From assembly GCA_021791515.1 (NCBI GenBank), contig JAJYWK010000012.1:1-61203 (forward strand): a DNA stretch of 61,203 bases, read 5' to 3'. Source of the stretch: a bacterium (GTDB lineage: Bacteria > Patescibacteriota > Doudnabacteria > UBA920). How positions within the stretch are numbered: the stretch's first letter is position 1; each line of letters opens with the position of its first letter. A program made the translations under genes and the position numbers. The notes below the pieces were generated by a model, which had not been told where the DNA came from, did no database searches, and was given only the letters and a program-made list of their open reading frames with translations. Below, piece by piece: positions 2,763-41,544 of the stretch.

Positions 2763-2949
2763 AGGACCTTCTTTATTATTCTCCCCAATTCATGGGGAGA
2801 TGTCCAGCCCCACTTTCTATTAGTTATTTGTACATGATGATAATCTTTTATATAGCTGATGATTATCAACTATAGTGGAATAACCTTCAGAAAGTGAGGC
2901 TGGACAGAGAGGTTAAAAAAATATTGATCGATTTTATTATATCACAAAA
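2763..2949 (+). repeat. Partial mosaic palindromic element, opposite orientation to the ribosomal-operon copies
   Basis: Plus strand reads CTCCCCAATTCATGGGGAGATGTCCAGCCCCACTTTC ... GAAAGTGAGGCTGGACAGAGAGG. These are the same modules as the 14414-20007 copies, but reverse-complemented relative to the flanking minus-strand genes. Confidence 0.8.
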
Positions 2950-4674
2950 TCATTCTACCAATTCCCCGCCAAAGATTTTTAGCGCCTCGGCAACGGCTTC
3001 GGTAGCGCCAACCGCAGTCGCCGGCTGGTTATTTATTACCTGACCTACAACGGACAGCTTCTTGCCAACCAACTCTCCAATTACCGCAACTATCAATTGG
3101 GAATTTTTTGGTATTTCCAGACTCTTTTTATCAAAAGCAAATTTTACGCTTACGATTATTTTGCCGGGTTGGGTTTGCAGGAGCTGGGTATTTTTTAACA
3201 TACTGGCCAACGGCCCGTTAATTTCCTTGACTTTGGCGATTATTTTCGGCCAAGCCGCCTGAATTTCATCTAAGCTGGCCAAATCCCCTGTCTCCACAAC
3301 CCCAACTTCCGACTGCGGAATATTTTCTGATTCAACCCTAACAACAGGAGGTTTGTTAACATCCGACTTTACCGACATCTCAACATCACTTCCAATTATC
3401 CGACCTTCCGACTCACCGACCTTCCGACTCACCGACCTTCCGACATTCCGATTCTCCGACTCACCGATTTGCCGACCTGCCTCGCCGGCAGGCGGGCTTG
3501 CCGACTTCCGAGTTGCCGCCTCTATCCCCGCTATGAGCAACGGCACCTGCGGGACTGGTGAAAACGGCAAATCTTTATACGCCTTTAAAAACAGGCGTGT
3601 GATATAAATTAATTCCGGAACGGAAAAACTTTCTGCAAGCGTTGTAAGTTTCTCTTCATGTTGTTCTGCCAGCCCAAAATGAATTGCGCCTCCGCCGATT
3701 TTGGCAATTAGCACCTTGCGCAAAAATTCCAAAAAGTCGCGGTTAAAAATCGCGTAATCCGCGCCCTTTTGGGCAAGCTGATTCAAAAATTCCGGGACTT
3801 TTTGAGCCTCGGACTGCCGGATAATTTCCAAAAACTCTGCGGCTGTGCCAAAATCGGTAATTCCCAAAAGCTGCTCTGCTTCTTCCAGGCTGGCTAACGT
3901 GCCCAAGGTGGAAACCTTTCCCAAAAGCGACAAAGCGTCTCTTACGCTGCCTTCCGCGTTATTAGCTAACAATTCCAAAATCGAGTTATTAAAATCTACG
4001 CCTTCTTTTTTGCAAACTTCTTTCAGTAAGTCAAAAATATCCTTTGAGCTCAAGGCCTTAAAATCAAAACGTTGGGTGCGGGAAATAATAGTAGGCGGCA
4101 CTTTGCCTATTTCCGTGGTGGCTAAAATAAAAATCGCATGCTTTGGCGGTTCTTCCAAAGTCTTAAGCAGCGCGTTAAACGCGCCCTTAGAAAGCATATG
4201 AACTTCGTCGATAATAAATACTTTATAATTACCTACCGATGGAGAAAACTTTACATGCTCTATTAGTTCGCGAATATTATCCACGCCGGTATTGGATGCC
4301 GCGTCAATTTCCACTAAGTCGATAAAGTTGCCCTGCTCAATCTGCTTGCACACAGAGCACTCCCCACACGCGCCCCCCAAAGCATCAGGCAAAGCCTGCA
4401 CATTATTACTCTCCCCCTTTTGGGGGAGATGTCCGCCTTCGGCGGACAGAGAGGGCTCCGACCCGCCGATACGCCGACTCGCCGATTCACAATTCACCGC
4501 CTTTGCCATAATCCTCGCGACCGATGTCTTTCCCACCCCCCGACTGCCGGTAAACAAATAGGCATGCGCAAAACTGCCCCCAGCTACCTGGTTTTTGAGG
4601 GTTTGAATTATGGATTTTTGGCCCACCACGTCCGCGAAAATTTGGGGGCGATACTTGCGGTATAAAACAGCCAT
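2950..4674 (-). CDS. dnaX: DNA polymerase III subunit gamma/tau
   Basis: MAVLYRKYRPQIFADVVGQ, Walker A GSRGVGKTS, DEVHMLS, SRTQRF. Stop codon is TGA. Confidence 0.9.
   Translation of the reverse strand: MAVLYRKYRPQIFADVVGQKSIIQTLKNQVAGGSFAHAYLFTGSRGVGKTSVARIMAKAVNCESASRRIGGSEPSLSAEGGHLPQKGESNNVQALPDALGGACGECSVCKQIEQGNFIDLVEIDAASNTGVDNIRELIEHVKFSPSVGNYKVFIIDEVHMLSKGAFNALLKTLEEPPKHAIFILATTEIGKVPPTIISRTQRFDFKALSSKDIFDLLKEVCKKEGVDFNNSILELLANNAEGSVRDALSLLGKVSTLGTLASLEEAEQLLGITDFGTAAEFLEIIRQSEAQKVPEFLNQLAQKGADYAIFNRDFLEFLRKVLIAKIGGGAIHFGLAEQHEEKLTTLAESFSVPELIYITRLFLKAYKDLPFSPVPQVPLLIAGIEAATRKSASPPAGEAGRQIGESENRNVGRSVSRKVGESEGRIIGSDVEMSVKSDVNKPPVVRVESENIPQSEVGVVETGDLASLDEIQAAWPKIIAKVKEINGPLASMLKNTQLLQTQPGKIIVSVKFAFDKKSLEIPKNSQLIVAVIGELVGKKLSVVGQVINNQPATAVGATEAVAEALKIFGGELVE
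3401..3480. repeat. Ten tandem 8-nt units CGAYNNNC inside dnaX
   Basis: cgaccttc cgactcac cgaccttc cgactcac cgaccttc cgacattc cgattctc cgactcac cgatttgc cgacctgc, read directly. Translated as ...GESENRNVGRSVSRKVGESEGR... Confidence 0.9.
4411..4490. repeat. Palindromic mosaic modules plus 8-nt repeats inserted in-frame in dnaX
   Basis: CTCCCCCTTTTGGGGGAG, then GTCCGCCTTCGGCGGACAGAGAGGG, then cgacccgc cgatacgc cgactcgc cgattcac. Encodes SRRIGGSEPSLSAEGGHLPQKGE. Confidence 0.85.
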
Positions 4675-6837: not shown

Positions 6838-6890
6838 TCCTGATTCCCTGCCTGCCGGCAGGCAGGTTAATTCTAAATTCTTGATTCTAT

Positions 6891-13916: not shown

Positions 13917-13978
13917 GAAGCATGAAGTTTGAAACATAAAGCATCACGTAAAGTATGCTTCATGTTTTATGCTTCATG

Positions 13979-14413: not shown

Positions 14414-14642
14414 AAATAGTTTATTCCTTATTGGGTTCCCCTCTCCAATTCCTGGAGAGGGGTCAGGGGAGAGGTTAAATACTTAGGATTCAAACCTCTC
14501 TGCCCAGCTCCACTTTCCAGTAATTATTCATTGGGGGGCAATAATTTGTTAACGTTTGATAATTATCTGCCTCAAATGATTAACTCTCAGAAAGCGGGGC
14601 TGGACATCTCCCCAAGCTTTGGGGAGAAAAATATTGAATTAT
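14414..14642 (-). repeat. Intercistronic mosaic hairpin element, long form (class I)
   Basis: Fills the rpsE-stop to rplO-start gap exactly; near-identical to 15144-15370 and 15749-15982. Confidence 0.95.
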
Positions 14643-15143
14643 CTATTTCCGCATTCTACCTAATTCTTCCTTGCTTTTCATCTTCTTAAAAGCCGCGAAA
14701 ACCGCTTTTACGTTATTAACTTTATTATTAGAGCCAAGCATTTTTGAAACCACGTTCTTTACGCCGGAAAGTTCCATAACACTGCGCACCGCGCCGCCGG
14801 CAATCACGCCGGTACCGGGCTTGGCCGGCTTTAGCATTAGAGAAGAAGATTTATACTTAATATTCAATCCATGCGGGATGGTTTGGTTAACCAAAGGTAA
14901 AACAATCAAATTCTTTTTGGCCGCGTTTACTGCTTTATTGACGCTCTCGGAGACATCCGCGCCTTTTTTCAGGCCCATGCCGACTTTGCCTTTGCGATCC
15001 CCGATTACGACCAAAGCGCGAAAGCGCATTCTTTTTCCGCCAGCCACCACGCGGGTGACACGCTTAACTTCCACGACTTTTTGGTCAAACTCGCTTCTTT
15101 CGCGTTCGCCTTCCCTGTTAGATTGTCTTCGTCTTTTTTCCAT
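14643..15143 (-). CDS. rpsE: 30S ribosomal protein S5
   Basis: VTRVVAGGKRMRFRALVVIGD. Confidence 0.93.
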   Translation of the reverse strand: MEKRRRQSNREGERERSEFDQKVVEVKRVTRVVAGGKRMRFRALVVIGDRKGKVGMGLKKGADVSESVNKAVNAAKKNLIVLPLVNQTIPHGLNIKYKSSSLMLKPAKPGTGVIAGGAVRSVMELSGVKNVVSKMLGSNNKVNNVKAVFAAFKKMKSKEELGRMRK

Positions 15144-15370
15144 AAAAATATTTTATTCCTTATTGGGTTCCCCTCTCCAATTCCTGGAGAGGGGTCAGGG
15201 GAGAGGTTAAATACTTAGGATTCAAACCTCTCTGCCCAGCTCCACTTTCCAGTAATTATTCATTGGGGGGCAATAATTTGTTAACGTTTGATAATTATCT
15301 GCCTCAAATGATTAACTCTCAGAAAGTGGGGCTGGACATCTCCCCAAGCTTTGGGGAGAAAAATATTGAA
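15144..15370 (-). repeat. Intercistronic mosaic hairpin element, long form (class I)
   Basis: Fills the rplR-stop to rpsE-start gap. Confidence 0.95.
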
Positions 15371-15748
15371 TTAAAAATCTAACCCACCCTCCCTTGCTCC
15401 TTCTGCCAATGCCTTTATTCTACCATGATAAGCAAAACCGCCGCGGTCAAATTTAACTGCCTTAACATTTTTTGACAAAGCTTTGCTCGCCACCAATTTT
15501 CCAACTTCTTTGGCTAAATCCGACTTCTTAGCTTTTCCGCCGGAGGCGGATCCGCCTTTGGCGGAAACTTCTTTGCTGGATGCCGCCAAAAGAGTCTTGC
15601 CAACAGAATCATCTATAACTTGAGCGTAAATATGGCGGTTGGCTTTGAATATCGAAAGGCGCGGCCTTGCGGTCGTACCGGCAATCCTGCTTCTTACCCG
15701 GCCGTGCCTTAAACTTCGCTTATTCCTTTTTTGCTGTTGCTTGTTCAT
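15371..15748 (-). CDS. rplR: 50S ribosomal protein L18
   Basis: [20 protein letters not shown]. Confidence 0.93.
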
Positions 15749-15982
15749 AATAGTTTATTCCTTATTGGGTTCCCCTCTCCAATTCCTGGAGAGGGGTAAG
15801 GGGAGAGATTAAATACTTAGGATTCAAACCTCTCTGTCCAGCTCCACTTTCCAGTAATTATTCATTGGGGGGCAATAATTTGTTAACGTTTGATAATTAT
15901 CTGCCTCAAATGATTAACTCTCAAAAAGTGGGGCTGGACATCTCCCCAAGCTTTGGGGAGAAAAATATTGAATTTTCTATAT
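15749..15982 (-). repeat. Intercistronic mosaic hairpin element, long form (class I)
   Basis: Fills the rplF-stop to rplR-start gap. Confidence 0.95.
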
Positions 15983-16534
15983 CTATTTCCCGCCCCCAAC
16001 CACCTTAACCACCTTGCCTGCTTTTCTCAAAATCACTTCATCTGAATATTTAATACCTTTACCCTTATAAGGCTCGGGCTTTTTAAGCTCCCGAATTTCC
16101 GCGGCAAACTGGCCGACTTTCTGTTTATCCGCCCCAAAAATGCTAATGACATTCTTTTCCACGGCTACGGTCAAATCTTTAGGCACCTCAACTTCCACCG
16201 GATGCGAAAAACCCAAATGCAATGTCAATTTGCCGGGCACAGTGGCAACTTTAAATCCCACACCAATTACTTCCAGTTTCTTTTCAAAACCTTTAACCAC
16301 GCCGTCTATTTGGTTCTGGATTAAAGCTCTAAATAATCCCCACAAGGCTTTTTCTCTCTTGTTCGCTCCGCCCACAGAAACAGCAACTTCCTTGTCGGAA
16401 ATTTCAACCTTAATTTTTGGATGCAAAGCCAAATGCAAAGTACCTTTAGGGCCGGTAACCACCAACTCTAAGTCTTTCTTTTCTACTTTTACCCCGGAAG
16501 GGATAATTACAGGTTTTTTTCCGATTCTAGACAT
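15983..16534 (-). CDS. rplF: 50S ribosomal protein L6
   Basis: MSRIGKKPVIIPSGVKV. Confidence 0.93.
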   Translation of the reverse strand: MSRIGKKPVIIPSGVKVEKKDLELVVTGPKGTLHLALHPKIKVEISDKEVAVSVGGANKREKALWGLFRALIQNQIDGVVKGFEKKLEVIGVGFKVATVPGKLTLHLGFSHPVEVEVPKDLTVAVEKNVISIFGADKQKVGQFAAEIRELKKPEPYKGKGIKYSDEVILRKAGKVVKVVGGGK

Positions 16535-16696
16535 AATATTTTATTCCTTGTTCTCCCCCTCCCCAAGACATGGGGAGGGAAATTCCACCGAAGGTGGAAT
16601 GGGGAGAGGTTGGTGATTCTTTTCAAACCTCTCTGCCCTCGCTTCGCTCGGGCATCTCCCCAAGCTTTGGGGAGAAAAATAATGAATTTTCTATAT
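16535..16696 (-). repeat. Intercistronic mosaic hairpin element, short form (class III)
   Basis: Same terminal modules. The AT-rich loop is replaced by the GCCCTCGCTTCGCTCGGGC hairpin. Confidence 0.9.
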
Positions 16697-17089
16697 TTAC
16701 CACACCTGGCAAACCACTTCTCCGCCGACCTTGGCTTTACGAGCTTCCCTGTCTGTCATAAGTCCCCGCGAAGTAGAAACAACCGTCAGCCCAAGCCCGC
16801 TGTTGGTTCTGGGCAATTTGTCCACCGGCAAATAAATTCTTTGACCCGGAGTACTTACACGCTTAATACCCGCAATTACCGGCTGGCCATCCTGTGTAAA
16901 CTTTAAACCGATCTTTAATAACTTAGGCTGGCCGCTTACTTCCTTTACATCTTTAACAAAACCTTCTTTCAACAAAACCTGAGCCAAATTAGCCTTGAAT
17001 TTGGAGTACGGCAAAATCAGCTCGGCTTTTTGAGCCATGCTTGCGTTACGGATTCTGGTTAACATGTCGGCGATTGGGTCTGTGAACAT
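16697..17089 (-). CDS. rpsH: 30S ribosomal protein S8
   Basis: MFTDPIADMLTRIRNA. Confidence 0.93.
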   Translation of the reverse strand: MFTDPIADMLTRIRNASMAQKAELILPYSKFKANLAQVLLKEGFVKDVKEVSGQPKLLKIGLKFTQDGQPVIAGIKRVSTPGQRIYLPVDKLPRTNSGLGLTVVSTSRGLMTDREARKAKVGGEVVCQVW

Positions 17090-17170
17090 AAGTTATTTTA
17101 GATTTATGATTTAAGATTTTAGATTTAACTGCAGCCAATCTGCAATCTACAATCTAAAATCTGCAATTAT

Positions 17171-17365
17171 TTACCACGAAGCTTTTACAATTCCAGGTAT
17201 CTCTCCCTTGCTGGCTAATTCTCTAAAGCAGATTCTGCACATGTCAAAATCTCTCATATAACCGGCTTTGCGGCCGCATTTCCAGCAGCGCCTCACAACC
17301 CGAGTCTGATACTTGGGTTTAGTTCTGCTTCTTAAAGATTTTGCAATTTGTGCTTGTGTAGCCAT
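17171..17365 (-). CDS. rpsN: 30S ribosomal protein S14, zinc-binding type Z (64 aa)
   Basis: MATQAQIAKS...CWKCGRKAGYMRDFDMCRICFRE. Start moved to the internal ATG; the upstream 23 codons of the tracked ORF are repeat sequence. Confidence 0.9.
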   Translation of the reverse strand: MATQAQIAKSLRSRTKPKYQTRVVRRCWKCGRKAGYMRDFDMCRICFRELASKGEIPGIVKASW

Positions 17366-17637
17366 ATATAGCTTATTCCTTATAGTCTCCCTCTCCAATT
17401 TCCGCCAGAGGCGGATCTGCCTTAGGCATGACATGGAGAGGGAAATTTCGCGTTAGCGAAATGGGGAGAGGTTAAATCCTTGGGTTCAAACCTCTCTGTC
17501 CAGCTCCACTTTCTATCGGTTATTTATCTTCTTATTAACAATCTTTCCTAATGATGATTATTAACCTCTATTCTATAACCTTCAGAAAGTGGGACTGGAC
17601 ATCTCCCCATGCTTTGGGGAGAAAAATATTGAATGGT
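17366..17637 (-). repeat. Intercistronic mosaic hairpin element, long form (class II)
   Basis: Fills the rplE-stop to rpsN-start gap. Carries an extra CCGCCAGAGGCGG module. Confidence 0.95.
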
Positions 17638-18177
17638 CTATTTCTTAAACGGAAAATTCATTAATCTTAAAAGTTCTCTAACCGGTTCGTCCTGGCCGGC
17701 GTTTGTGACAATTGATACTTCCAAGCCGAAAATATTTTCCAGACTTTCCGAGGAAATTTCCGGGAAAACCAACTGCTCCTTTAAACCCAAATGATAGTTA
17801 CCCCGGCCGTCAAAACCGTCTTTCTTTACGCCCTGGAAATCTCGCACTCTGGGCAACGCAGTGTTAATCAACTTGTCTAAAAAACTATACATTCTAAAAC
17901 CGCGCAAAGTGCAAACAACGCCCACTAACTGATTTTCTCTTACTTTAAAACCGGAAATAGATTTTTTAGCCTTGGTTTTCACCGGCGCCTGGCCGGTTAT
18001 CTTCTTTATATCCTCGGCCACTGCTTCCACTTTTTTCTTATCTTCTTTAATCTTTCCCACGCCAACATTTACAACAATTTTCACGATTTTAGGCACCTGC
18101 ATGACATTCTTAAAACCGAACTTCTGTTTTAAAGCCGGAACAATCTCTTTATTATATTTTTCCTGTAATCTTTCCAT
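17638..18177 (-). CDS. rplE: 50S ribosomal protein L5
   Basis: MERLQEKYNKEIVPALKQKFGFKNVMQVPKI. Start at the internal ATG. Confidence 0.92.
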   Translation of the reverse strand: MERLQEKYNKEIVPALKQKFGFKNVMQVPKIVKIVVNVGVGKIKEDKKKVEAVAEDIKKITGQAPVKTKAKKSISGFKVRENQLVGVVCTLRGFRMYSFLDKLINTALPRVRDFQGVKKDGFDGRGNYHLGLKEQLVFPEISSESLENIFGLEVSIVTNAGQDEPVRELLRLMNFPFKK

Positions 18178-18422
18178 ATATAGCTTATTCCTTATAGTCT
18201 CCCTCTCCAATTCATGGAGAGGGAAATTTCGCGTTAGCGAAATGGGGAGAGGTTAAATCCTTGGGTTCAAACCTCTCTGTCCAGCTCCACTTTCTATCGG
18301 TTATTTATCTTCTTATTAACAATCTTTCCTAATGATGATTATTAACCTCTATTCTATAACCTTCAGAAAGTGGGACTGGACATCTCCCCATGCTTTGGGG
18401 AGAAAAATATTGAATGGTCTAT
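18178..18422 (-). repeat. Intercistronic mosaic hairpin element, long form (class II)
   Basis: Fills the rplX-stop to rplE-start gap. Confidence 0.95.
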
Positions 18423-18740
18423 TTATACTGCCTTACCACTCGCCTTAGCTATTCTCTGCTTTGAACCGTTTTCTAAAAATACAAAATGTACTCTGGAAGG
18501 CTGGCCGGAATTAGGATCCAATAGCATGACTTTAGACGCTGGAAAAGCTGCAAAAAAAGTTATCTTTTTTCCACCCTCGCCGCTTCTTTTGGCTTTCTCA
18601 AAACGGGTGTGCGTATTTACGTTCTCTACTACCAGCTTGCCTGCTTTGGGCAGAACCTTTATAACTTTTCCGGTCTTTCCCTTGTCTTTTCCGGAAAGCA
18701 CTTTTACGGTATCGCCTTTTTTAATTCGTAATTTGTTCAT
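18423..18740 (-). CDS. rplX: 50S ribosomal protein L24
   Basis: KIKKGDTVKVLSGKDKGKTGKV. Confidence 0.92.
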   Translation of the reverse strand: MNKLRIKKGDTVKVLSGKDKGKTGKVIKVLPKAGKLVVENVNTHTRFEKAKRSGEGGKKITFFAAFPASKVMLLDPNSGQPSRVHFVFLENGSKQRIAKASGKAV

Positions 18741-18818
18741 AACTAGATAATTAGTTGGTTAGAGAATTAGAGAAATAGACTTTACTAATTCTCTGTCTCT
18801 CTAATTTTCTGACTCTTT

Positions 18819-19220
18819 CTATATTACTTCCGGAGCTAAGGATAAAATCTTCTTAAACCCATCTTCGTAATAACCTTTTGCCATATCGCGAATCTCTCTG
18901 GGGATGGGCCCAAAAATACGGGTACCGAGCATTTCGTAGTTGCCTTTGGCGTCTTTTTTTACCAATACCCCGGCATTCTCATCAAAGCGGATGTAAGAAC
19001 CGTCTTTGCGGCGGGTTTCTTTGCGCAAACGCACAATCACCGCATAAACTTTATCACCTTTTTTATAAGCGCCGTTCGGAGCGCAAACCCTTACCGATCC
19101 GGCCACCACGTCGCCCACTCTGGCAAAACGGTTGCTGTTCTTGCCGTTTACGCTAAAAACATTAACGACTTTCGCGCCTGTGTTGTCCGCTATTTTAATG
19201 TAGGAACGTACTTGTAACAT
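18819..19220 (-). CDS. rplN: 50S ribosomal protein L14
   Basis: IKIADNTGAK..., operon position. Confidence 0.92.
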   Translation of the reverse strand: MLQVRSYIKIADNTGAKVVNVFSVNGKNSNRFARVGDVVAGSVRVCAPNGAYKKGDKVYAVIVRLRKETRRKDGSYIRFDENAGVLVKKDAKGNYEMLGTRIFGPIPREIRDMAKGYYEDGFKKILSLAPEVI

Positions 19221-19306
19221 AGAATTAATTCAAAATTTAAATATCAAAGTGTAAAATGTAGTTGTCGCTTCGCGACTCTATAATTTTGCATTTTGATTTT
19301 TGCATT

Positions 19307-19552
19307 TTACATTTTCTGAATAACCTTAAACTTCTTCTCTTTACTTATCGGCCTTATTGATTCAATAGTAACTCGATCGCCGACTTTATACTCATTATTT
19401 TCATCATGCGCCTTGAACCTCTTCGAAACCGTGTAGGATTTTTTGTACTTGGAATGGCGCTTTTTAATATCAACCTTGACCACAACAGTCTTGGTCATTT
19501 TATCGGAAACCACCGTACCAATTAATTGCTGTTTTTTGATAGATGTTGTCAT
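19307..19552 (-). CDS. rpsQ: 30S ribosomal protein S17
   Basis: GTVVSDKMTKTVVVKV. Confidence 0.92.
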   Translation of the reverse strand: MTTSIKKQQLIGTVVSDKMTKTVVVKVDIKKRHSKYKKSYTVSKRFKAHDENNEYKVGDRVTIESIRPISKEKKFKVIQKM

Positions 19553-19563
19553 ATTCTTGATAC

Positions 19564-19764
19564 TTACTGCTTACTGCTTACTGCTTTTGAATGTAAATAA
19601 GTCATTATTCTGGCAATGTCTTTTTTGACCACTCCGAGCTCATGGGTATTCTTTAGCTGATTAAGCCGGATTTTAACCCCTAAATCCTGCGCCTTTTCTT
19701 TCAATTCCAAAAGCAGGTTCTTAATTTCAGCGTCTGATTTAGTTTTCAGTTCTTTAAAATTCAT
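19564..19764 (-). CDS. rpmC: 50S ribosomal protein L29
   Basis: 66 aa, ELKTKSDAEIKNLLLELK, operon position. Confidence 0.88.
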   Translation of the reverse strand: MNFKELKTKSDAEIKNLLLELKEKAQDLGVKIRLNQLKNTHELGVVKKDIARIMTYLHSKAVSSKQ

Positions 19765-20007
19765 AATAGCTTATTCCTTATAGTCTCCCTCTCCAATTCA
19801 CGGAGAGGGAAATTTCGCGTTAGCGAAATGGGGAGAGGTTAAATCCTTGGGTTCAAACCTCTCTGTCCAGCTCCACTTTCTATCGGTTATTTATCTTCTT
19901 ATTAACAATCTTTCCTAATGATGATTATTAACCTCTATTCTATAACCTTCAGAAAGTGGGACTGGACATCTCCCCATGCTTTGGGGAGAAAAATAATGTG
20001 CTTCGCG
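19765..20007 (-). repeat. Intercistronic mosaic hairpin element, long form (class II)
   Basis: Fills the rplP-stop to rpmC-start gap. Confidence 0.95.
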
Positions 20008-20424
20008 CTATCCCTGTTTCTCCTTCTCCAAAAATTTACTCTTTACCGGCAGTTTATAGCTGGCCAATCTCATGGCTTCCTGTGCCTGGTCCCGGGTTAC
20101 GCCGTCCATTTCAAACAAAATTTTCCCGCGTTTGACAACAGATACAAAATGATCCACCGCGCCTTTACCGCCACCCATAGGGCTCTCGTTTCCGTGCAAG
20201 GTGACCGGCTTGTCCGCAAACACACGGATCCAAATCTTTCCGCCTCTTTGCACGTAGCGGGTCATGGCTCGCCTGGCCGCTTCAATCTGCCTGGCTGTAA
20301 CCCAAGAACTTTCGGTGGCTTTAAGCGCAAACTGCCCAAAAGCAATCTGCTCGCCGGCCGAGGCCTGTCCTTTGGTATGACCGCGATGATGCTTGCGGTG
20401 TTTAAGTTTCTTAGGGATGAACAT
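20008..20424 (-). CDS. rplP: 50S ribosomal protein L16
   Basis: [15 protein letters not shown]. Confidence 0.93.
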
Positions 20425-20555
20425 ATATCTTTACAATCAATTTCTTAATTTCTATTAATTTCGCGAAAGCCGAAGGCTTGAACTAATTTCATAATAATAT
20501 TGATAGAAATTTGTTCGCCTTTCAGGCTCACGAAATTTGGAAATTGTCTTGAATA

Positions 20556-21206
20556 TTAAACCTTCTGCCTTTCTTCAAACTTATCTCCCTTATAAATCCA
20601 AATCTTTACGCCCACGGTTCCATATGTAGTAAATGCGGTGCTTCTGGCAAAATCAATGTCAGCCCTTAAAGTGTGAAGCGGAATTTTTCCGGAAGACAAA
20701 TGTTCGGTTCTGGCAATGTCCGCGCCGTTAAGCCTGCCGCCAATTGCTACTTTTGCTCCTTTGGCCCCCGCGTTCATTATCTGCTCCAAAGACTGCTTCA
20801 TCAGTTTTCTAAATGCCACGCGCTTTTCCAACTGCTCTACAATTCCGTTGGCTATTACCTGGGCCTGCAAATTAATGTCCCTTACTTCTTCAATGTTGAC
20901 TTTAAGTTCTTTTTTAATGCCAAGCTTGTTCTTTATCTTCTTTTTTAATTCTTCAATTCCGGCTCCGCCTTTGCCAATAATCAGTCCCGGTTTGGTGGTC
21001 TTTACTATTACCGTGATAGTACCATCATTTAAGCGCTCAATGTCAATTCTAACCAAGCCCGCTTTTTTGAGATGTTTTTCCAAATATTCGCGAATCCTCA
21101 CGTCATCCTGCAGTTGCTTGGCAAAACCGTGCCTTGCAAACCACCTGGATTTCCAGGATTCGGTAATATTAAGCCGTAATGAAGTTGGATTAATCTTATG
21201 TCCCAT
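20556..21206 (-). CDS. rpsC: 30S ribosomal protein S3
   Basis: MGHKINPTSLRL. Start at the internal ATG. Confidence 0.92.
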   Translation of the reverse strand: MGHKINPTSLRLNITESWKSRWFARHGFAKQLQDDVRIREYLEKHLKKAGLVRIDIERLNDGTITVIVKTTKPGLIIGKGGAGIEELKKKIKNKLGIKKELKVNIEEVRDINLQAQVIANGIVEQLEKRVAFRKLMKQSLEQIMNAGAKGAKVAIGGRLNGADIARTEHLSSGKIPLHTLRADIDFARSTAFTTYGTVGVKIWIYKGDKFEERQKV

Positions 21207-21375
21207 ATATAGCTTATTCCTTATTCTCTCCCTCTCCAAGACTTGGGGAGGGAAATTCCACCGAAGGTGGAATGGGGAGAGGTTGATATTAATTTAACCG
21301 TTCAAACCTCTCTGCCCTCGCTTCGATCGGGCATCTCCCCAAGCTTTGGGGAGAATTATAATGAATTTTCTATGT
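21207..21375 (-). repeat. Intercistronic mosaic hairpin element, short form (class III)
   Basis: Fills the rplV-stop to rpsC-start gap. Confidence 0.9.
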
Positions 21376-21960
21376 TTATTCTCCACTCTTTCTATTAAAT
21401 AACCTTCTCTTATTCGCTGCCTTGCTCAATTTCATTTGCTGTTCGGTCGTCTTGCCGACCTCGCTGTGTCTGCCCATTTCCTTTGGCGCTTTTTTGGCCG
21501 CCGCGTCCGCTTTGTCTGCATTTTCGGAAGTTTGTTCTTTCTTGTCTTCCACTTTCTTTAAGAAGCTCATTTTGGTCTTGCTGGCTTTGCCTTTCTTTCT
21601 TTCTTCCAGTACCAAATTTACATGGCAAAGTTTTCTGCGAATTACAAAAGCGCTTCCGCGGGCCCGGGGAAAATACCGCTTCATGGTTTGCCCCATGTCC
21701 GTGGAAATGCTCTTAATAAAAAGATGTTCGGGTGAAAGCGAAAAATTATTTTTGGCGTTGGCAATGGCGGATTTAATTAACCTGATGAGTAGCGGCGCAG
21801 CCTTTTTGTTGGCATGCTGCAATTGGACAATCGCGTCAACCGCGTTCATCCCGCTCACTAAACCGGTCACCAGGCGCATCTTTCTCGGGGCAATTCTAAG
21901 CTGACGGGCAGAAGCTCGGACTAATTTTGGAGATTCGGTTGTGGATGTCTTATTGGCCAT
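21376..21960 (-). CDS. rplV: 50S ribosomal protein L22 with ~75-aa Lys-rich C-terminal extension
   Basis: ASARQLRIAPRKMRLV core; 194 aa total. Confidence 0.9.
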   Translation of the reverse strand: MANKTSTTESPKLVRASARQLRIAPRKMRLVTGLVSGMNAVDAIVQLQHANKKAAPLLIRLIKSAIANAKNNFSLSPEHLFIKSISTDMGQTMKRYFPRARGSAFVIRRKLCHVNLVLEERKKGKASKTKMSFLKKVEDKKEQTSENADKADAAAKKAPKEMGRHSEVGKTTEQQMKLSKAANKRRLFNRKSGE

Positions 21961-21997
21961 TACTTTATAAACTTTATAACTTTATGAACTTGATAAA

Positions 21998-22330
21998 CTA
22001 TTTCTTTTCCGGCTCTTTCGCCGCATTCAGCTTTGCCTTTTCCGCTTCCGCTGCCGCGGCTTCCTGTTCTTTGGCCATCTTACCGCCGTGGCGGGTAAAT
22101 TTGCGGGTTGGGGAAAATTCGCCTAGCTTATGTCCGACCATATTTTCCGTAACAAATACCGGGGTGTGCGCCCTGCCGTTGTGCACCAAAAAAGTAAAGC
22201 CTACAAATTCAGGCGCAATAGAGCAAGCGCGGGACCAAGTTTTAATTTGATCCTTGCCTGCCTTGCCGTTCTGTACTTTCTTAAGTACTCGCGGGTCTAC
22301 GTATGGTCCTTTTTTAGAACTTCTTGACAT
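21998..22330 (-). CDS. rpsS: 30S ribosomal protein S19 (C-terminal Ala/Lys/Glu tail)
   Basis: [12 protein letters not shown]. Confidence 0.92.
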
Positions 22331-22426
22331 AAATGTAATACGAAACTACTAATTAAATACGAACCTGCGAAATGTTATGCGAAATTTCGAATTATTTTCG
22401 TTGTTTCGCATGCGCATTTTCGCATG

Positions 22427-23263
22427 CTACTTGCTTCTCCTTTGCACTATCATCTGATTAGAATATTTCTTCTTTAATCTCGTCTTAACCCCTAACGCAT
22501 GCTTGCCCCACGGGGTTTTTGGATATTTCATACCAATTGGGTTGTGTCCTTCACCACCACCGTGCGGGTGATCTACCGGGTTCATAACTTTGCCGCGAAC
22601 GGTCGGCCGCCAGCCCATATTGCGCATCCGGCCTGCCTTGCCGATTCTCACATTCATCCAATCTTGGTTCGCCAACTGGCCAACTGTGGCCAATGCCTCT
22701 TCTTTTACTTTACGAATTTCGCTGCTGGGAAGTTTAAGCAACGCGTACCCGCCTTCCAGCGTCTGTAGTGTAGCATATCCGCCGGCGCTGCGCGCGATTT
22801 TGCCGCCCTGTCCTGGAATCAATTCAATGTCGTGGATTAATGTTCCAACCGGAATATTTTTTAAAGCCAATCGGTTGCCGGGCAAAATTTCCGCTGTCTC
22901 GCCGTACATAACTTTATCGCCGACTTTCATGCCCTGCGCGGTTAACATATAGCGTTTACTGCCGTCTTTATAGGAAATCAGGGAAATAAAGCTGCTTCTG
23001 GTCGGATCGTACTCAATGGTTAAAACTTTGGCTGGAATATTCTTTTTGTCGCTCCTGGAAAAATCCACAATCCGGTATTTGCGCTTGGCGCCGCCGCCTT
23101 GATGGCGCACGGTAATTTTGCCGCTGTTGTTGCGGCCGGCCGGCCTGGCTTTGCTTACAATCAAACCTTTGGGGGTTTTCTTGAATTTACGCAAAACCGA
23201 ATAATCCGTAACCGAATGGATACGTCTGCCTGCGCTGGTTGGTTTGTAGAGTTTTACGGCCAT
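22427..23263 (-). CDS. rplB: 50S ribosomal protein L2
   Basis: MAVKLYKPTSAGRR ... HPHGGGEG. Start at the internal ATG; the upstream 39 codons are repeat sequence. Confidence 0.92.
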   Translation of the reverse strand: MAVKLYKPTSAGRRIHSVTDYSVLRKFKKTPKGLIVSKARPAGRNNSGKITVRHQGGGAKRKYRIVDFSRSDKKNIPAKVLTIEYDPTRSSFISLISYKDGSKRYMLTAQGMKVGDKVMYGETAEILPGNRLALKNIPVGTLIHDIELIPGQGGKIARSAGGYATLQTLEGGYALLKLPSSEIRKVKEEALATVGQLANQDWMNVRIGKAGRMRNMGWRPTVRGKVMNPVDHPHGGGEGHNPIGMKYPKTPWGKHALGVKTRLKKKYSNQMIVQRRSK

Positions 23264-23408
23264 AAATAGATTATTCTTTATCGTATTTCCCCTCTCCAAT
23301 TCCTGGAGAGGGATCAGGGGAGAGGTTAAATACCTGGTTTCAAACCTCTCTGTCCCGCCTTCGGCGGGACATCTCCCCAAGCTTTGGGAGAAAAATAATG
23401 AATGAGCT
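23264..23408 (-). repeat. Intercistronic mosaic hairpin element, short form (class III)
   Basis: Fills the rplW-stop to rplB-start gap. Central hairpin GTCCCGCCTTCGGCGGGAC. Confidence 0.9.
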
Positions 23409-23807: not shown

Positions 23808-23873
23808 GTCTCAAATTTAAAATATAAATATCAAAGTGTAAAATACGAGTGTTTTTGCGAAACAAAAACTCAT

Positions 23874-24545: not shown

Positions 24546-24616
24546 AAAACATGAATTATGAAGCATGAAGTTTGAAAAGCAAAATGTTGCGTGTTTCAAG
24601 TTTCATGTTTCATCGT

Positions 24617-27437: not shown

Positions 27438-27773
27438 AAACTTTATACCTTTCTTTTTGATGAGTCAGTATGGATATTAATCCAATATGCCGATTCACCA
27501 ATCTGCCCGAGACCCCCTCACCGCTGCAGCGTATCGATCCGCCACAGTGCCGAGGGTATCTCTTTCTTTCCTTTCGGAATCCAGGGCAATAATTAATTTG
27601 TTAGTCAAAACTTATTTTAAAGATATTTAGCAGGTTTGTCAACCTACAATCCTAACACGGATATTACGGATTGGTCACGCCTGCCTGCCGGCAGGCAGGG
27701 AACTACTGATATCTGCGGATTTGATATCCGTAGTAATCCGTTTTTCCGTGTACAATCAGCAGATCCGTGTTAA

Positions 27774-30517: not shown

Positions 30518-30750
30518 TTTAGATTTTAGATTTAATGATTTTGGATTGTAGGGGGCGGACTTGCCCGCCAGTTAATCGATTATATAGTATACCGATTTAT
30601 CGGTTTTAGTTTCTGTAGGCATCTGTAGTGCATTTCCTCTGTAGTTCTGTAGTACCTTTACAAACCTCTCTCTCTTTGATATTCTGACCTGTCACCATAA
30701 AGGGATACGGGCCTTGAGACCCTAAAGCCCGGCGAGAAAGGAGGAAGCCA

Positions 30751-31011
30751 ATGCTAATAAACGGCTATCATCGATGTCCACACTTGCCCTTGGATGTCGT
30801 AATCCACCACCAAGCAAACCCGGTGCAGTGGTTCCTAGAGCATAGAGCACCGGCGATTTCAGAACTCCGGATCCCCGAGAAGGTTTTCTTGCTCGCAATC
30901 TGGTTCTGCCCCATCTGCGGGCAGAATCTCAGCCAGCCACCAGAGGAAGCTCTGCCGCGCGACGGCCGGACGAGCGATCTGGATCTGCCCAAGGACTCGG
31001 TCCCCATCTGA
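30751..31011 (+). CDS. GC-rich small ORF (86 aa), convergent with the str operon
   Basis: AAGGAGG 6 nt before the ATG. HRCPH ... CPICG Cys/His pairs. Intrinsic terminator downstream. Confidence 0.5.
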   Translation: MLINGYHRCPHLPLDVVIHHQANPVQWFLEHRAPAISELRIPEKVFLLAIWFCPICGQNLSQPPEEALPRDGRTSDLDLPKDSVPI

Positions 31012-31035
31012 ACAGTACCTGCCGCCGCCACTCTC

Positions 31036-31078
31036 GCGCCGCGCCTGACCCTCCCGGTCTCGCGCGGCGCATTTTTTT
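31036..31078 (+). terminator. Intrinsic terminator of the 86-aa ORF
   Basis: GCGCCGCGC ... GCGCGGCGC stem, followed by ATTTTTTT. Confidence 0.6.
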
Positions 31079-31241
31079 GATTCAAATTACGTAATTAATT
31101 ACGTAATTATTTTTTAAAGTTCCTTATAAATGTATCGTCCTAAATTTATTTTAGGACCCATCCTTCTTTGTAGATTCTGAAACAAGTTCAGAATGACACT
31201 TCAGCGTAAGTCTGCGTTCAGTCCGCGTTAGTCAGCGCTGT

Positions 31242-31838: not shown

Positions 31839-31990
31839 AATAGATTTTCCTTACAATTCTCCTCTCTCCAATTCTTGGAGAGAGGCCGGGAGAGAGGTTA
31901 AAACCTAAGTTTCAAACCTCTCTGTCCCGCCTTCGGCGGGACATCTCCCCTCCGCCAGCTGGCGGACTTGGGGAGAATAATAATGTAAAA
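31839..31990 (-). repeat. Intercistronic mosaic hairpin element, short form
   Basis: Fills the rpsL-stop to rpsG-start gap; modules GTCCCGCCTTCGGCGGGAC and CCGCCAGCTGGCGG. Confidence 0.9.
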
Positions 31991-32404: not shown

Positions 32405-32590
32405 AAATAGTCCATTCCTTATTCGGTTCCCCTCTCCAATTTCCGCCAGAGGCGGATCTGCCTTAGGCATGACATGGAGAGGGGTCAGGGGAGAGGTTAA
32501 AAACTTAGATTTCAAACCCCTCTGTCCCGACGAGTCGGGACATCTCACCTCCGCCAGCTGGCGGACTTGGGGAGAAAAATAATGATTAAA
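32405..32590 (-). repeat. Mosaic hairpin element in the rpsL leader
   Basis: Same head (GGTTCCCCTCTCCAATT...) and tail modules as the intercistronic copies; abuts the rpsL ATG. Confidence 0.9.
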
Positions 32591-34527: not shown

Positions 34528-36252
34528 TTAGTGCCCGAAAAATCCTCTCGCGTCCTTGTCCGGGAGCATAACCAAAGTTATTTTGTTATCTTCGCAAAAC
34601 TTTTTAACTTCCTCATCGCGCACACTGCCGGAAGTGGCGAAGATGGTTGTAATGCCGGCGTTAAATAAAACCTGAACACCGTCCACAAACGGAAAAAAGC
34701 TGTCGCTGTAGGCAGTGGCATTCTTAACATCATGACCCGCGTCAGTTGCGCGTTTTATGGCCAACTGACAGCAACCCACCCTGTCCTGCTGACCCACGCC
34801 GTTTCCAAGCAGCTGATTATTTTTTACGACCGTGACCGTGTTGCTATTGCTGGTAGAGCCAATTGCCCAGGCTAAAATGATATCCGATTTTTGCTGGTCT
34901 GATAAATTCCCTATTCGTGTCATTCGGGTAGAATTCGTGTCATTCGGGTCGGACAAATTTGGTATAAATGAATAATTTGGCTGTTTTAAAAACCCGCCGC
35001 GCACGTAGCGAAAACGAGAATGTTGATCGAGAGAATTTTTAGAAAGCGATGTGAGAGCCGGATTAACTAAAAATCTGCACTTGTCGCCTTTTCGCTTCAT
35101 TAGTTCTATAGCTTTCTGATCAAAATCCGGCGCAATAATTCCGTCCAGCAAACGCCTTCCCGATTCCATACGATGAGTTAAAAGTACCTCTGCCAACTCT
35201 TCATCTATTTTAAAATTTACCATTACTACTCCGCCGAATATTGCGCGCAAATCCCCTTCCAGCATTTTTTGGATTGCGGTTTTAGCGTCTTGTGATGCTG
35301 ATGCCCCGCACGGATTTCCATGTTTGACCCCAACTGCAATATTCAATTTAGACCTCCCCTCCCCAAGACTTGGGGAGGGGTCGGGGGAGAGGTTGATTTT
35401 ATTCACATCAAACCCCGCGGCTATGTGGGTCATGGTCTGCAAGAGCCTGTCAACATCCGCCAAATTATTGTAAGACGGCGCCGTACCCGCAACTAACTTA
35501 AAATTAGAAATTGCTAATTCATCTTCAATTTCGTTTTTAAACAGCCCAGCCGGCACCTGCCAGGCATTCTCTCCGTATTTAAGGCCCAAAACTTCATGGG
35601 CAACCACGCCGCCAATCTTGCCTTGGGCATGATAGCGGGCTGAAGCCAAAGCATAATCAGACACAACAAATTCCGCTTTGGCGCAATATTTGTTTATAAA
35701 ATTTTCCCTATCCGGCTCGCCGTTTTTTAACCACTCGATTATTTTTGGCCTATCTTCGGGATCACAGACAACTATGCGTCGGCCCTTTGCCGCGCTTCTT
35801 AGCATTGTCGGCCCGCCAATATCGGTTTTTTCTAACACAGCTTCTAATCCTTTTTGTTTCTCTCCCCAAGTTTGGGGAGAGTTAGAGAGAGGTTGATGTT
35901 TAGTAATCTCCTCCGAAAGCGGATACAAATCCACGCAAACCAAATCTATAAACGGAATATGCAAACGATCCAACTCTTTTCGATCCTCATCAATATCCCG
36001 CGCCAAAAGCCCGGCATGGATTTCGCGCGACAGTGTAACCACGCGGTGGCCCAAAATCGCCCCACCGCCGACAAGCGAAGCCACATCTGTGGTCTCAATG
36101 CCGGCATCGGATAACACCTTGGCCGTCCCCCCGCTGGCTAAAATTCTAAAACCCAAAGCAACCAGTTCTTTGGCAAACTCCACAATCCCTTCTTTATTGA
36201 AAACCGAAATTAAGGCTATCCTGTTCTTTACATTTTGATCAATCATAATCAT
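34528..36252 (-). CDS. purH: Bifunctional AICAR transformylase / IMP cyclohydrolase
   Basis: MGS-like N-terminus (SVFNKEGIVEFAKEL..GGTAK), GVKHGNPCGAS, AYSDSFFPF. Confidence 0.9.
   Translation of the reverse strand: MIMIDQNVKNRIALISVFNKEGIVEFAKELVALGFRILASGGTAKVLSDAGIETTDVASLVGGGAILGHRVVTLSREIHAGLLARDIDEDRKELDRLHIPFIDLVCVDLYPLSEEITKHQPLSNSPQTWGEKQKGLEAVLEKTDIGGPTMLRSAAKGRRIVVCDPEDRPKIIEWLKNGEPDRENFINKYCAKAEFVVSDYALASARYHAQGKIGGVVAHEVLGLKYGENAWQVPAGLFKNEIEDELAISNFKLVAGTAPSYNNLADVDRLLQTMTHIAAGFDVNKINLSPDPSPSLGEGRSKLNIAVGVKHGNPCGASASQDAKTAIQKMLEGDLRAIFGGVVMVNFKIDEELAEVLLTHRMESGRRLLDGIIAPDFDQKAIELMKRKGDKCRFLVNPALTSLSKNSLDQHSRFRYVRGGFLKQPNYSFIPNLSDPNDTNSTRMTRIGNLSDQQKSDIILAWAIGSTSNSNTVTVVKNNQLLGNGVGQQDRVGCCQLAIKRATDAGHDVKNATAYSDSFFPFVDGVQVLFNAGITTIFATSGSVRDEEVKKFCEDNKITLVMLPDKDARGFFGH
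35351..35396. repeat. Palindromic module inserted in-frame in purH
   Basis: GACCTCCCCTCCCCAAGACTTGGGGAGGGGTCGGGGGAGAGGTTG; encodes LSPDPSPSLGEGRS. Confidence 0.85.
35860..35897. repeat. Palindromic module inserted in-frame in purH
   Basis: CTCTCCCCAAGTTTGGGGAGAGTTAGAGAGAGGTTG; encodes LSNSPQTWGEK. Confidence 0.85.
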
Positions 36253-38921: not shown

Positions 38922-39163
38922 CGGGCTGTAGCCCCATAGTAGTTCCGGCAAGCCGGAACACTACGGGGTAAATATAGCTTGCCCTGTTAAATATTTGCCC
39001 TTGTACGGGATATAGTATAATGGTAGTACGCGTGCATGGGGTGCATGTAGCCCCGGTTCGATTCCGGGTATCCCGACCACGGGCAAATAATATTTAACGG
39101 GGTGAAGTAGTACGCGTCCATGGGGTGGATGTAGTCTGGGTTCGATTCCCAGCAGCCCGACCA
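38922..39163 (+). other. Disrupted/outer tRNA-Pro(GGG)-like gene enclosing the intact tRNA-Pro
   Basis: CGGGCTG (38922-38928) is perfectly complementary to CAGCCCG (39151-39157), which is followed by ACCA. The 3' part has the anticodon arm CGTCC-ATGGGGT-GGATG and the T arm CTGGG-TTCGATT-CCCAG. The D region is interrupted by hairpin elements and tRNA-Pro. Confidence 0.5.
39006..39079 (+). tRNA. tRNA-Pro (anticodon GGG), CCA encoded
   Basis: Hand-folded cloverleaf: CGGGATA/TATCCCG acceptor, GTAT/GTAC D stem, CGTGC-AUGGGGU-GCATG anticodon arm, CCCGG-TTCGATT-CCGGG T arm, A73, CCA. Confidence 0.9.
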
Positions 39164-39270
39164 TGACGAAAATTACTACAGGGTAAAGGTGCGTGCTCGC
39201 CCCGTAGCATCCCGCCGATGGCGGGATTGCTACCGGGGTAGTCCGAGTTCGATTCTCGGCATCCCGACCA
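39164..39270 (+). other. tRNA-derived fragment (T arm + acceptor 3' strand + CCA) fused to a long hairpin
   Basis: ...CCCCGTAGCATCCCGCCGATGGCGGGATTGCTACCGGGG TAGT CCGAG TTCGATT CTCGG CATCCCG ACCA. No matching 5' acceptor strand found. Confidence 0.6.
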
Positions 39271-39348
39271 CGGGCAAATATTTCACTGTTCGTTTCCCAG
39301 TCTACCCCGTAGCCAACCGAAGGTTGTGCTACCGGGGCAGCCCGACCA
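39271..39348 (+). other. tRNA-derived fragment (acceptor 3' strand + CCA only) fused to a hairpin
   Basis: GGGCAAATATTT... CCCCGTAGCCAACCGAAGGTTGTGCTACCGGGG CAGCCCG ACCA. Confidence 0.55.
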
Positions 39349-40930: not shown

Positions 40931-40953
40931 AAAAAAACCCGCCTTGCGCGGGA
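40931..40953 (-). terminator. Intrinsic terminator ending the parB / four-helix-bundle transcription unit
   Basis: Minus strand: CCCGC GCAAG GCGGG, followed by TTTTTTT. Confidence 0.6.
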
Positions 40954-41181
40954 TTTGGTTTTGCTTTGATTTTTTTAAAAAAATCTTACGCCAAATCCCT
41001 ATTTTTAATAACCCAAACCAAGCCCTTAAAAAGGACCGGGAGGGTAACAATAGAGTTGCGGCGAAAATTCATCATAATTTATACTAACTTGATTTAACTA
41101 AAGTATACGGATTTTAAAAAGTTTGTCAAACGGAGTTATCCAGAGGGTGTAGGGTTGAGGGTGTAGGGTACAGAAGCTTAT

Positions 41182-41544
41182 TTATTTTTTGAGACTTTTT
41201 ATTAAAACAAACAGCATTTTTTGGACTTCAGTAAGTAAACTTTCCATTTTTGAAAAGTTAATATTCCTGTATAAATCTTTACTAATTATTTCTTGAGTTT
41301 CTAATTCCGCAGATGATGCGTCTGCAATGCTTAAAAATTGAATATATTCTCCTAAATTTTTTCTTTTATATCCTTCGGCAATATTTGAAGGAATAGAAAC
41401 GGCAGCCCGACGCATTTGGCTAACTAATCCATATAGTTCGTTTTTTGGAAACTTTTCAGTAACAAAATAAACTTCCTTTACTAACTCAATTGCCTTTTGC
41501 CAAACTATTAATTCTTTAAATGAAGTTATCATTTTTGTTTGCAA
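41182..41544 (-). CDS. Four-helix-bundle protein (23S rRNA intervening-sequence protein family)
   Basis: FKELIVWQKAIELVKEVY...LVSQMRRAAVSIPSNIAEGY signature. Confidence 0.85.
   Translation of the reverse strand: MQTKMITSFKELIVWQKAIELVKEVYFVTEKFPKNELYGLVSQMRRAAVSIPSNIAEGYKRKNLGEYIQFLSIADASSAELETQEIISKDLYRNINFSKMESLLTEVQKMLFVLIKSLKK

Follow-up and report, generated by a model that had tools for sequence, protein, structure and literature searches.

Stem-loops between cistrons can serve as processing or stability determinants in the early region of phage T7, where they are RNase III hairpins, and in the Correia and ERIC miniature inverted-repeat transposable elements (MITEs), and the Rickettsia palindromic elements (RPEs) are palindromic repeats inserted in-frame in protein-coding genes. 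Repetitive extragenic palindromes (REPs) and bacterial interspersed mosaic elements (BIMEs) of proteobacteria (E. coli, Pseudomonas), initially described as intercistronic, are co-transcribed mosaics of alternating palindromic units and conserved linkers with reported effects on mRNA stability (Delihas 2011, PMC3184786), to which the REPIN concept is related (PMC3337134). Neisseria REP2 and the Borrelia inverted repeat (IR) combine stem-loops with a ribosome-binding site (RBS) and an ATG (PMC3184786). Rhizobial intergenic repeats (RIMEs, Sm-repeats and palindromes) have been annotated without a known function (PMC2573895), and the TAACTGA heptamers of Beggiatoaceae and cyanobacteria, which stand upstream of start codons in place of a Shine-Dalgarno (SD) sequence, are over-represented at translation genes and are regarded as mobile and perhaps regulatory (PMC4679880). 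Here we analyze a multi-hairpin palindromic repeat that occupies the spacers between ribosomal-protein genes on contig JAJYWK010000012.1 (GCA_021791515.1; Patescibacteriota, Doudnabacteria); the stretch analyzed, positions 1-61,203 (61,203 nt), is referred to as the window. Few bacterial gene arrays are as conserved and compact as the ribosomal-protein super-operons, and the genomes of Patescibacteria are strongly reduced.

Intercistronic cassettes in the ribosomal-protein operon

The minus strand carries nearly all predicted genes of the window, including a super-operon in the order rpsJ-rplC-rplD-rplW-rplB-rpsS-rplV-rpsC-rplP-rpmC-rpsQ-rplN-rplX-rplE-rpsN(Z)-rpsH-rplF-rplR-rpsE-rplO-secY. 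NCBIfam, run on the window genes, found rpmD (L30) to be absent from this S10/spc array; loss of L30 is typical of Patescibacteria, the candidate phyla radiation (CPR). As the original prediction had stated, nine gaps of 145, 169, 243, 245, 272, 162, 234, 227 and 229 nt consist almost entirely of one co-oriented repeat family with a constant order of modules. Each cassette extends from the stop codon of one gene to the start codon of the next, in the direction of the genes, and every gene flanking the nine gaps was confirmed by NCBIfam. A census of the window with a covariance model (CM), derived from nine short-form copies of which five belong to the window and four to other genomes, yielded exactly 11 full copies, all on the minus (sense) strand and scoring 102-140 bits. 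At least five partial copies are also present (Table 1). The family extends beyond 14414-23408, the range first described, with two further full copies at rpsL; a look-up of the exact RpsL sequence gave no record. The motif GGGGAGATGYC occurs 13 times in the window, compared with 1.2 expected occurrences.

In short-read assemblies of this organism, contigs are typically interrupted by the repeats, are 0.8-5 kb long and end within elements, as might be expected if repeats had been collapsed or misjoined, or if the contig were chimeric. However, the same sequence is present in independent assemblies (GCA_027335125.1, GCA_027424835.1, ENA ERZ27236928/ERZ27237183 and Logan SRR22746132), gene-cassette-gene junctions are identical across several independent assemblies and samples, and related elements are present in other genomes. 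The cassettes are therefore not an assembly artefact, an explanation that we rejected as having next to no chance of being correct.

Downstream of the stop codon, the modules follow one another in the order AT-rich flank ATTCAWTATTTTT, hairpin H1 (CTCCCCAAAGCTTGGGGAG), AT, H2, A, H3 (GAGAGGTTTGAA..AACCTCTC), an optional mini-hairpin, H4 (CCCTCTCCA..TGGAGAGGG) and a tail of the form ATAAGGAATAA-N-ATG. H2 is either a 16-17-bp stem closing an AT-rich arm of ~70 nt (long form) or a GC mini-hairpin (short form). The left half of the element comprises H1, AT, H2, A and GAGAGGTT. Because the right half (AACCTCTC, the optional mini-hairpin and H4) is laid out as the reverse complement of the left half, the full element is a doublet of a single type of unit of ~45-60 nt, the two units being inverted relative to each other, with the 5' AT flank and the 3' tail added; over its whole length it forms an imperfect inverted repeat. 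In order, the basic unit has a CTCCCC-loop-GGGGAG hairpin, AUG, a GC mini-hairpin of the form GYCC..GGRC that can be lengthened into an arm of ~100 nt, and AGAGRGG. Single units of both the left and the right type exist.

Every folded copy contains 4-6 stable hairpins, with folding energies of -58 to -112 kcal/mol and z-scores of -5 to -13 relative to dinucleotide shuffles. When the 33 pairs of the four core helices were compared over 16 full copies, which come from five genomes, standard pairs made up 96.1% of cells (42-56% in slid controls). Changes on both sides of a pair were found at eight positions, six in H2 and two in H4, so that two of the four helices show compensatory changes; H1 and H3 are invariant in sequence throughout these copies. 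The sense and antisense strands have similar folding energies, with no clear asymmetry of G-U versus A-C, and the data therefore show that palindromes have been selected or generated, without indicating the strand or the molecule. No terminator-like hairpin followed by a U-tract is present on the sense strand within any cassette; the T-run of the cassettes is placed 5' of H1 and not 3' of a hairpin. At gathering thresholds, Rfam matched only two tRNAs in the window, and an E-value search returned chance-level matches only.

The A-rich tail places UAAGGA(AU) 7-12 nt before the ATG of the next cistron and is, as judged from its sequence, an SD-like element present at the start codon. The original prediction had each copy ending in AAGGAA, which is correct for ten of the 11 full copies; the rplW/rplB copy has AAAGAA instead. 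The other cistrons of the operon possess no SD-like motif. At the L004 locus of another genome, the element's own ATG opens a 14-codon upstream open reading frame (ORF) that overlaps the start of the L25 gene, which suggests that the ATG is part of the repeat. In the predicted ensemble the SD is unpaired with a probability of 0.2-0.8, and its accessibility exceeds that of the element's body only to a moderate degree. A 5' ATTCAWTATT segment can pair with the SD tail, and such a closing stem appears in many minimum-free-energy folds; covariation is too sparse to support it, and its existence is speculation based on the modeled structures.

Distribution and exchange of the cassettes

Full copies precede 11 of the 22 ribosomal-protein genes in the window and none of the 53 other genes (p=1.4e-7); no full copy was found there before tuf, fusA or aminoacyl-tRNA synthetase genes. 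We scanned GTDB genomes, whose representative set does not include the source genome, and JGI metagenomes for the H3 pattern and obtained only four true members plus chance matches. All four lie beside ribosomal-protein genes: in the rplF/rplR gap (L003), upstream of rplY (L004), upstream of rpsG (L005) and in the rplK/band7 gap (L008). The same pattern gave 0 matches in viral_contigs. The association with ribosomal-protein genes is not absolute, as shown by the L156 locus described below and by the units in dnaX and purH. Two elements are arranged in tandem at L005 (75-330, minus strand), upstream of rpsG: a divergent full one and, directly after it, one without the 5' arm of H1, which shows that copies can stack.

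Several observations indicate mobility. Two triplets of window copies are 94-99% identical, and a 54-nt insert nested in H4 (17389-17442) is 100% identical to 32430-32483 in copies that otherwise differ. Four contigs from sibling samples encode a ribosomal protein L5 that is 100% identical and yet have different gap contents. L013 carries the element in rplX/rplE, a 73-nt AU-type hairpin in rplE/rpsN and a different mosaic variant in rpsH/rplF, whereas L014 and L016 carry the element in rplE/rpsN and, in rplX/rplE, a hairpin 90% identical to that in the rplN/rplX gap of the window. The genes flanking the swapped gaps are 98-100% identical, and their few mismatches cluster in the last 2-4 codons beside the gap. 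Conspecific strains thus exchange whole stop-to-start cassettes, and one and the same AU-type hairpin is seen in rplN/rplX of the window and in rplX/rplE of L014 and L016. When L013, L014 and L016 are set against window positions 17090-18822, it is only in the upstream gene that synonymous differences accumulate, in its last 2-4 codons.

Presence and absence also differ between genomes. The family was absent from relatives with 83-86% identity in L5 (L017, L019, L027, L030 and L032), but L003, with 72% identity, has one copy with a near-identical core in the same rplF/rplR gap; its rplP/rpmC and rplE/rpsN gaps measure only 24 and 18 nt. The rplK/band7 gap is occupied by a full element in L008, is 17 nt long in the L004 genome (L154) and contains another hairpin in L156. 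A right unit precedes rplK in L008, and a left unit lies 5' of a non-ribosomal ORF (orf70) in L156.

Partial units of the window are found both between and within genes. The unit at 2763..2949 has the order AACCTCTC-T, long H2, AT, CTCCCC..GGGGAG, an A-rich AAGAAGG tail and ATG, with GGGGAGATGTC on the plus strand at 2794. The unit inside dnaX reads ATTATTA, CTCCCCC-TTTT-GGGGGAG, ATG, TCCGCC-TTCG-GGCGGA and CAGAGAGGG. Insertions were judged by alignment to E. coli DnaX and, for purH, to PurH structures in the PDB. In an alignment of L18 sequences, an insertion of 8-10 aa, AKGGSASGG, is found only in the window and in L019. Near-copies of the rplR mini-hairpin CCGCCAAAGGCGGATCCGCCTCCGGCGG are seen in the rplR/rpsE gap of L019 and in the nested H4-loop inserts (17389-17442 and 32430-32483). 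The fixed orientation claimed earlier thus applies to the 11 full copies, which are all in the sense direction, and not to the partial units, which also occur inverted and within coding regions. Since inverted and intragenic fragments exist, orientation and stop-to-start fit can be explained by selection on insertions, and the argument that these features exclude MITE litter is weakened.

Long spacers are unusual for such operons in general, as had been noted, but not in this lineage. In L019, a Doudnabacteria metagenome-assembled genome (GCA_031291995.1), all 20 gaps from rpsJ to secY contain hairpins of 82-274 nt that belong to a few genome-specific families, about half of the gaps in L017 contain hairpins, and the non-family gaps of the window also carry AU-type hairpins. 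The element family is one instance of a lineage trait, the intercistronic hairpin cassette. AU-rich cassettes lie at 13938-13978, 17090-17170, 18741-18818, 19221-19306, 22331-22426, 23808-23873 and 24546-24616 of the window and within 2862-13793 of L019, where they recur as families in different gaps. Their arms are periodic in units of 7-10 nt (for example TACGAAG/TACGAAC, TTGACAAGA and AGATTNT). None of them supplies an SD, and some fold better on the antisense strand.

Table 1. Full cassettes and partial units of the repeat family in the window (CM, covariance-model score).
Feature	Coordinates	Strand	Evidence and remarks
Long-form full cassette, rpsE/rplO gap	14414..14642	-	CM 121.8 bits; fold -88.6 kcal/mol; 97-99% identity to next two copies
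Long-form full cassette, rplR/rpsE gap	15144..15370	-	CM 122.1 bits; sequence and fold
Long-form full cassette, rplF/rplR gap	15749..15982	-	CM 120.9 bits; relative L003 has a family member in the same gap
Short-form full cassette, rpsH/rplF gap	16535..16696	-	CM 139.7 bits; different mosaic variant in strain L013
Long-form full cassette with nested hairpins in H4 loop, rplE/rpsN gap	17366..17637	-	CM 101.8 bits
Long-form full cassette, rplX/rplE gap	18178..18422	-	CM 114.4 bits; different hairpin in L014 and L016
Long-form full cassette, rplP/rpmC gap	19765..20007	-	CM 109.6 bits; gap of just 24 nt in L003
Short-form full cassette, rplV/rpsC gap	21207..21375	-	CM 126.7 bits
Short-form full cassette, rplW/rplB gap	23264..23408	-	CM 139.7 bits
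Short-form full cassette, rpsL/rpsG gap	31839..31990	-	CM 124.2 bits; outside the range first described
Full cassette upstream of rpsL	32405..32590	-	CM 104.3 bits; outside the range first described
Single right-type unit, opposite unit orientation, between dnaX and next gene	2763..2949	-	Sequence
Left unit inside dnaX, antisense to the gene	4405..4460	+	~32-aa insertion relative to E. coli DnaX
Right unit ATCAACCTCTCCCC + CCCCTCCCCAAGTCTTGGGGAGGGG, in-frame in purH-like gene	35345..35400	-	CM 43.4 bits; ~19-aa insertion
Right unit ATCAACCTCTCTC + CTCTCCCCAAACTTGGGGAGAG + A-rich tail, in-frame in purH-like gene	35850..35905	-	CM 28.8 bits; ~14-aa insertion
Double GC mini-hairpin CCGCCAAAGGCGGATCCGCCTCCGGCGG, in-frame in rplR	15534..15567	-	Resembles nested H4-loop insert

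Origin and possible role of the cassettes

The original prediction had offered as its second reading a mobile element that persists in essential operons by bringing its own RBS. Differences in presence between strains, the patchy phylogeny, the near-identical copies and the in-frame units in dnaX, purH and rplR all support mobility, and we consider it probable that the family is a selfish palindromic repeat of the REP/BIME/REPIN kind that has recently proliferated in this species. Filtered by selection, such a repeat has possibly been co-opted as punctuation consisting of hairpins plus an RBS. Units would spread by a hairpin-dependent mechanism, either a trans-acting single-strand-DNA transposase or template switching, and then by homologous recombination through the conserved flanking genes. 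They would land in intergenic and coding DNA in either orientation, and an inverted doublet would form H3 from two unit ends. In essential ribosomal-protein operons only one configuration would survive: co-oriented with the genes, without a sense terminator, with reading frames intact and with the SD tail unpaired directly before the downstream start. Within the polycistronic mRNA, the most plausible role of the stem-loops would be to hold up exonucleases or to provide sites for RNase III-type processing; neighboring cistrons would be structurally separated, with the tail driving de novo initiation, and the cassettes would amount to tolerated, possibly co-opted, punctuation.

Several points weigh against a selfish repeat. 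Enrichment before ribosomal-protein genes is not predicted by pure selfish spread, and 16 of 16 full copies in five genomes run in the direction of the genes and end against a start codon. In the window, the directions of transcription and of replication are confounded because nearly all genes lie on one strand, so that the orientation bias is attributable to neither. The invariance of H1 and H3 across genomes that share only 72% identity in L5 could be due to functional constraint and not to recent transfer. In the species of the window, every alternative allele is a further hairpin and none is an empty spacer. Among the ~40 window proteins, Pfam revealed no transposase or REP-associated tyrosine transposase (RAYT), and no target-site duplication or defined insertion site was recognized at the junctions; no insertion junction can be defined because the alleles are whole-cassette replacements. 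A parent insertion sequence was likewise not found among the window proteins, and no GTAG-type tetranucleotide is evident in the window copies. A speculative extension is that conserved ribosomal-protein genes serve as homology arms for the transfer of intervening DNA between strains and species, which could jointly explain why the element favors ribosomal-protein genes, why its phylogeny is patchy and why alleles differ by whole cassettes.

The reading to which the original prediction gave first place, a module for processing, stabilization or insulation, may apply: the hairpins are real, sense-strand terminators are lacking in all cassettes and an SD is supplied. In one version, the element is a dedicated cis-regulatory RNA module for ribosomal-protein synthesis, comparable to a bacterial 5' terminal oligopyrimidine ('5'TOP'-like) motif, in which anti-SD-like CCUCUCC/CUCCCC arms sequester SD-like GGAGAGG/GGGGAG arms and one trans-acting factor (a protein, RNase III or the ribosome itself) co-ordinates translation or processing of many cistrons. 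Such a module would fit the statistical enrichment before ribosomal-protein genes, the loci upstream of rplY, rpsG, rplR and rplK in other genomes, a fixed orientation with the cassette end always at a start codon, the conservation of H1 and H3 in sequence beyond structure, and the weak pairing of 5' flank and SD tail that brings stop and start codons together. We nevertheless judge it unlikely, given that the element is polymorphic within the species and replaceable by unrelated hairpins, is not found in closer relatives or in half of the gaps between ribosomal-protein genes in this operon, has units in dnaX, in purH and before non-ribosomal genes (band7 in L008, orf70 in L156), lacks an Rfam match and has an SD just moderately more exposed than its body. 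Selection for any stable stem-loop, whether it is cut by RNase III, blocks 3' exonucleases or insulates folding, would make the GC-rich family merely one interchangeable source of hairpins. This is compatible with a selfish origin and is a realistic possibility, if a clearly less probable one. The fully occupied rpsJ-secY gaps of L019, the hairpins in non-family gaps of the window, the conspecific alleles that are other hairpins and the AU-type cassette recurring in different gaps of different strains are all in keeping with it. However, hairpins are not required, because many gaps of these operons in L017, L003, L031 and L154 are short (4-50 nt) and unstructured; the near-equal sense and antisense energies and the missing G-U asymmetry mean that RNA-level selection is not demonstrated, and some AU cassettes fold better antisense.

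The cassettes might instead bear promoters, especially in the long H2 loop, and thereby allow each downstream gene to be transcribed on its own, as Neisseria REP2 or Correia elements do. Three copies have promoter-like sites (TTAACA-18-AATAAT and TTGAGA-17-GATAAT, sense strand, matching at the level of consensus only) in their long H2 loops, and such sites are ~3 standard deviations more frequent in the region than in shuffles. We regard this as very unlikely, since these are mere consensus matches in AT-rich loops, short-form copies do not have them, no terminators precede the elements, and the L004 copy lies downstream of a separate promoter-like TTGCCA..TATAAT. A loose H1-H2-H3-junction pattern matched at least 120 viral or proviral loci in viral_contigs; among the matches listed, 138 of 197 show in addition the H1 arm and a palindromic H2, although the pattern demands neither. 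BLAST found the unit on 183 Rhizobium, Sinorhizobium and related plasmids. The unit could be an ancient cross-phylum mobile RNA or DNA module, domesticated in Patescibacteria as an intercistronic cassette with a portable SD, although we think this rather doubtful. If it were true, recombination through ultra-conserved ribosomal-protein genes would carry the cassette from strain to strain and from species to species, and operon architecture would be actively remodeled by a repeat that sets mRNA processing and translation at the level of single cistrons.

It is unexpected that half of the intercistronic junctions of such an operon should be filled by a recently mobile palindromic repeat of 145-272 nt that brings the downstream RBS, that whole cassettes should be swapped between conspecific strains, and that a relative should have cassettes in all 20 gaps. 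A selfish repeat of this kind would imply that such elements can colonize and restructure core translation operons. The same genes with different cassettes also represent a natural allelic series in which the effects of hairpins on mRNA processing, stability and translational coupling can be tested in organisms that resist cultivation. Finally, the match to rhizobial architecture hints at a widespread class of repeats.

Other features of the window and comparison with known systems

Further repeats and structured stretches lie elsewhere in the window. Tandem repeats with a period of 8 nt (CTTCCGAC and variants, plus strand) occur in the coding regions of dnaX (3373-3484) and leuS (50106-50153) and presumably encode low-complexity peptide repeats. 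The perfect palindrome CCTGCCTGCCGGCAGGCAGG is found at 6847-6866, 27680-27699 and 53105-53124, and in the related genome at L156 10766-10790; the copies examined sit shortly after a predicted gene end, and they may represent another REP-like or terminator-like family. CYCYCC..GGRGRG palindromes in the coding regions of metG (54695-54719) and of a sua5/yrdC-like gene (48831-48848) may be further in-frame unit insertions. The leucyl-tRNA synthetase (LeuRS; 49620-52655, 1011 aa) gives weak alpha/beta-hydrolase Pfam matches at residues ~247-399, which suggests an inserted domain. Two long non-coding stretches with strong structure are outside the repeat family, namely 724 nt between rpsG and fusA (30518-31241), including a GC-rich ORF of 105 aa without a Pfam match, and 336 nt upstream of tuf (27438-27773; z -7.4). 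At 39006-39280, tRNA-Pro is followed by two repeats resembling tRNA 3' halves that were not called by ARAGORN, and at 43117-43316 a 52-nt exact duplication of part of the tRNA-Leu gene lies 115 nt from that gene. A highly structured, GC-rich (~0.53) region of ~1.5 kb at 39620-41182, which has few convincing ORFs and no Rfam match at gathering thresholds, adjoins a gene for a 23S-rRNA-intervening-sequence protein.

In a literature search we found no description of such cassettes in ribosomal-protein operons of Patescibacteria. The T7, Correia and ERIC stem-loops differ from the CPR cassettes in that the stems of the latter are shorter (8-17 bp each) and arranged in arrays; processing of the latter is hypothetical. 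The TAACTGA heptamers are short direct repeats without a hairpin or an SD, in contrast to a multi-hairpin palindrome that adds an SD. The RPEs, compared by description, resemble the CPR insertions of ~32 aa in DnaX, ~14 and ~19 aa in PurH and 8-10 aa in L18 in being in-frame; to our knowledge, RPEs neither supply ribosome-binding sites nor occupy ribosomal-protein operons. REP2 is similar in having stem-loops and an RBS-like sequence with an ATG directly upstream of an ORF, a likeness of description and not of sequence. It differs in carrying a promoter and in preceding co-regulated virulence genes, and it has not been reported from ribosomal-protein gaps.

The rhizobial repeat shares with the CPR unit the arrangement ATCTCCCC-loop-GGGGGAG, ATG, GYCC-loop-GGRC and AGAGGGG, with many inverted pairs, and its members contain the CTCCCC..GGGGAG hairpin, the ATG, the GC mini-hairpin and CAGAGGGG. 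Based on its occurrence on 183 plasmids, the unit found by BLAST is therefore assigned, at the level of class and by sequence, to the rhizobial intergenic palindromic repeats. The rhizobial copies differ in being GC-rich, in occurring in both orientations in the sampled loci and in having no SD tail after the units examined. The unit architecture is shared at the sequence level, common descent being unproven since the matches were chosen with a 17-nt pattern derived from the CPR element. Compared with REPs, BIMEs and REPINs, the CPR element has no evident GTAG tetranucleotide or RAYT within the 61-kb window, is not strictly extragenic, with units in-frame in dnaX, purH and rplR, and is distinguished by an SD tail at the next start codon, a reduced-genome host and a preference for ribosomal-protein operons. 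It resembles them in its short imperfect palindromic units, in its many copies (11 full and at least five partial in 61 kb) and in its mosaic, inverted-doublet organization with conserved linkers.

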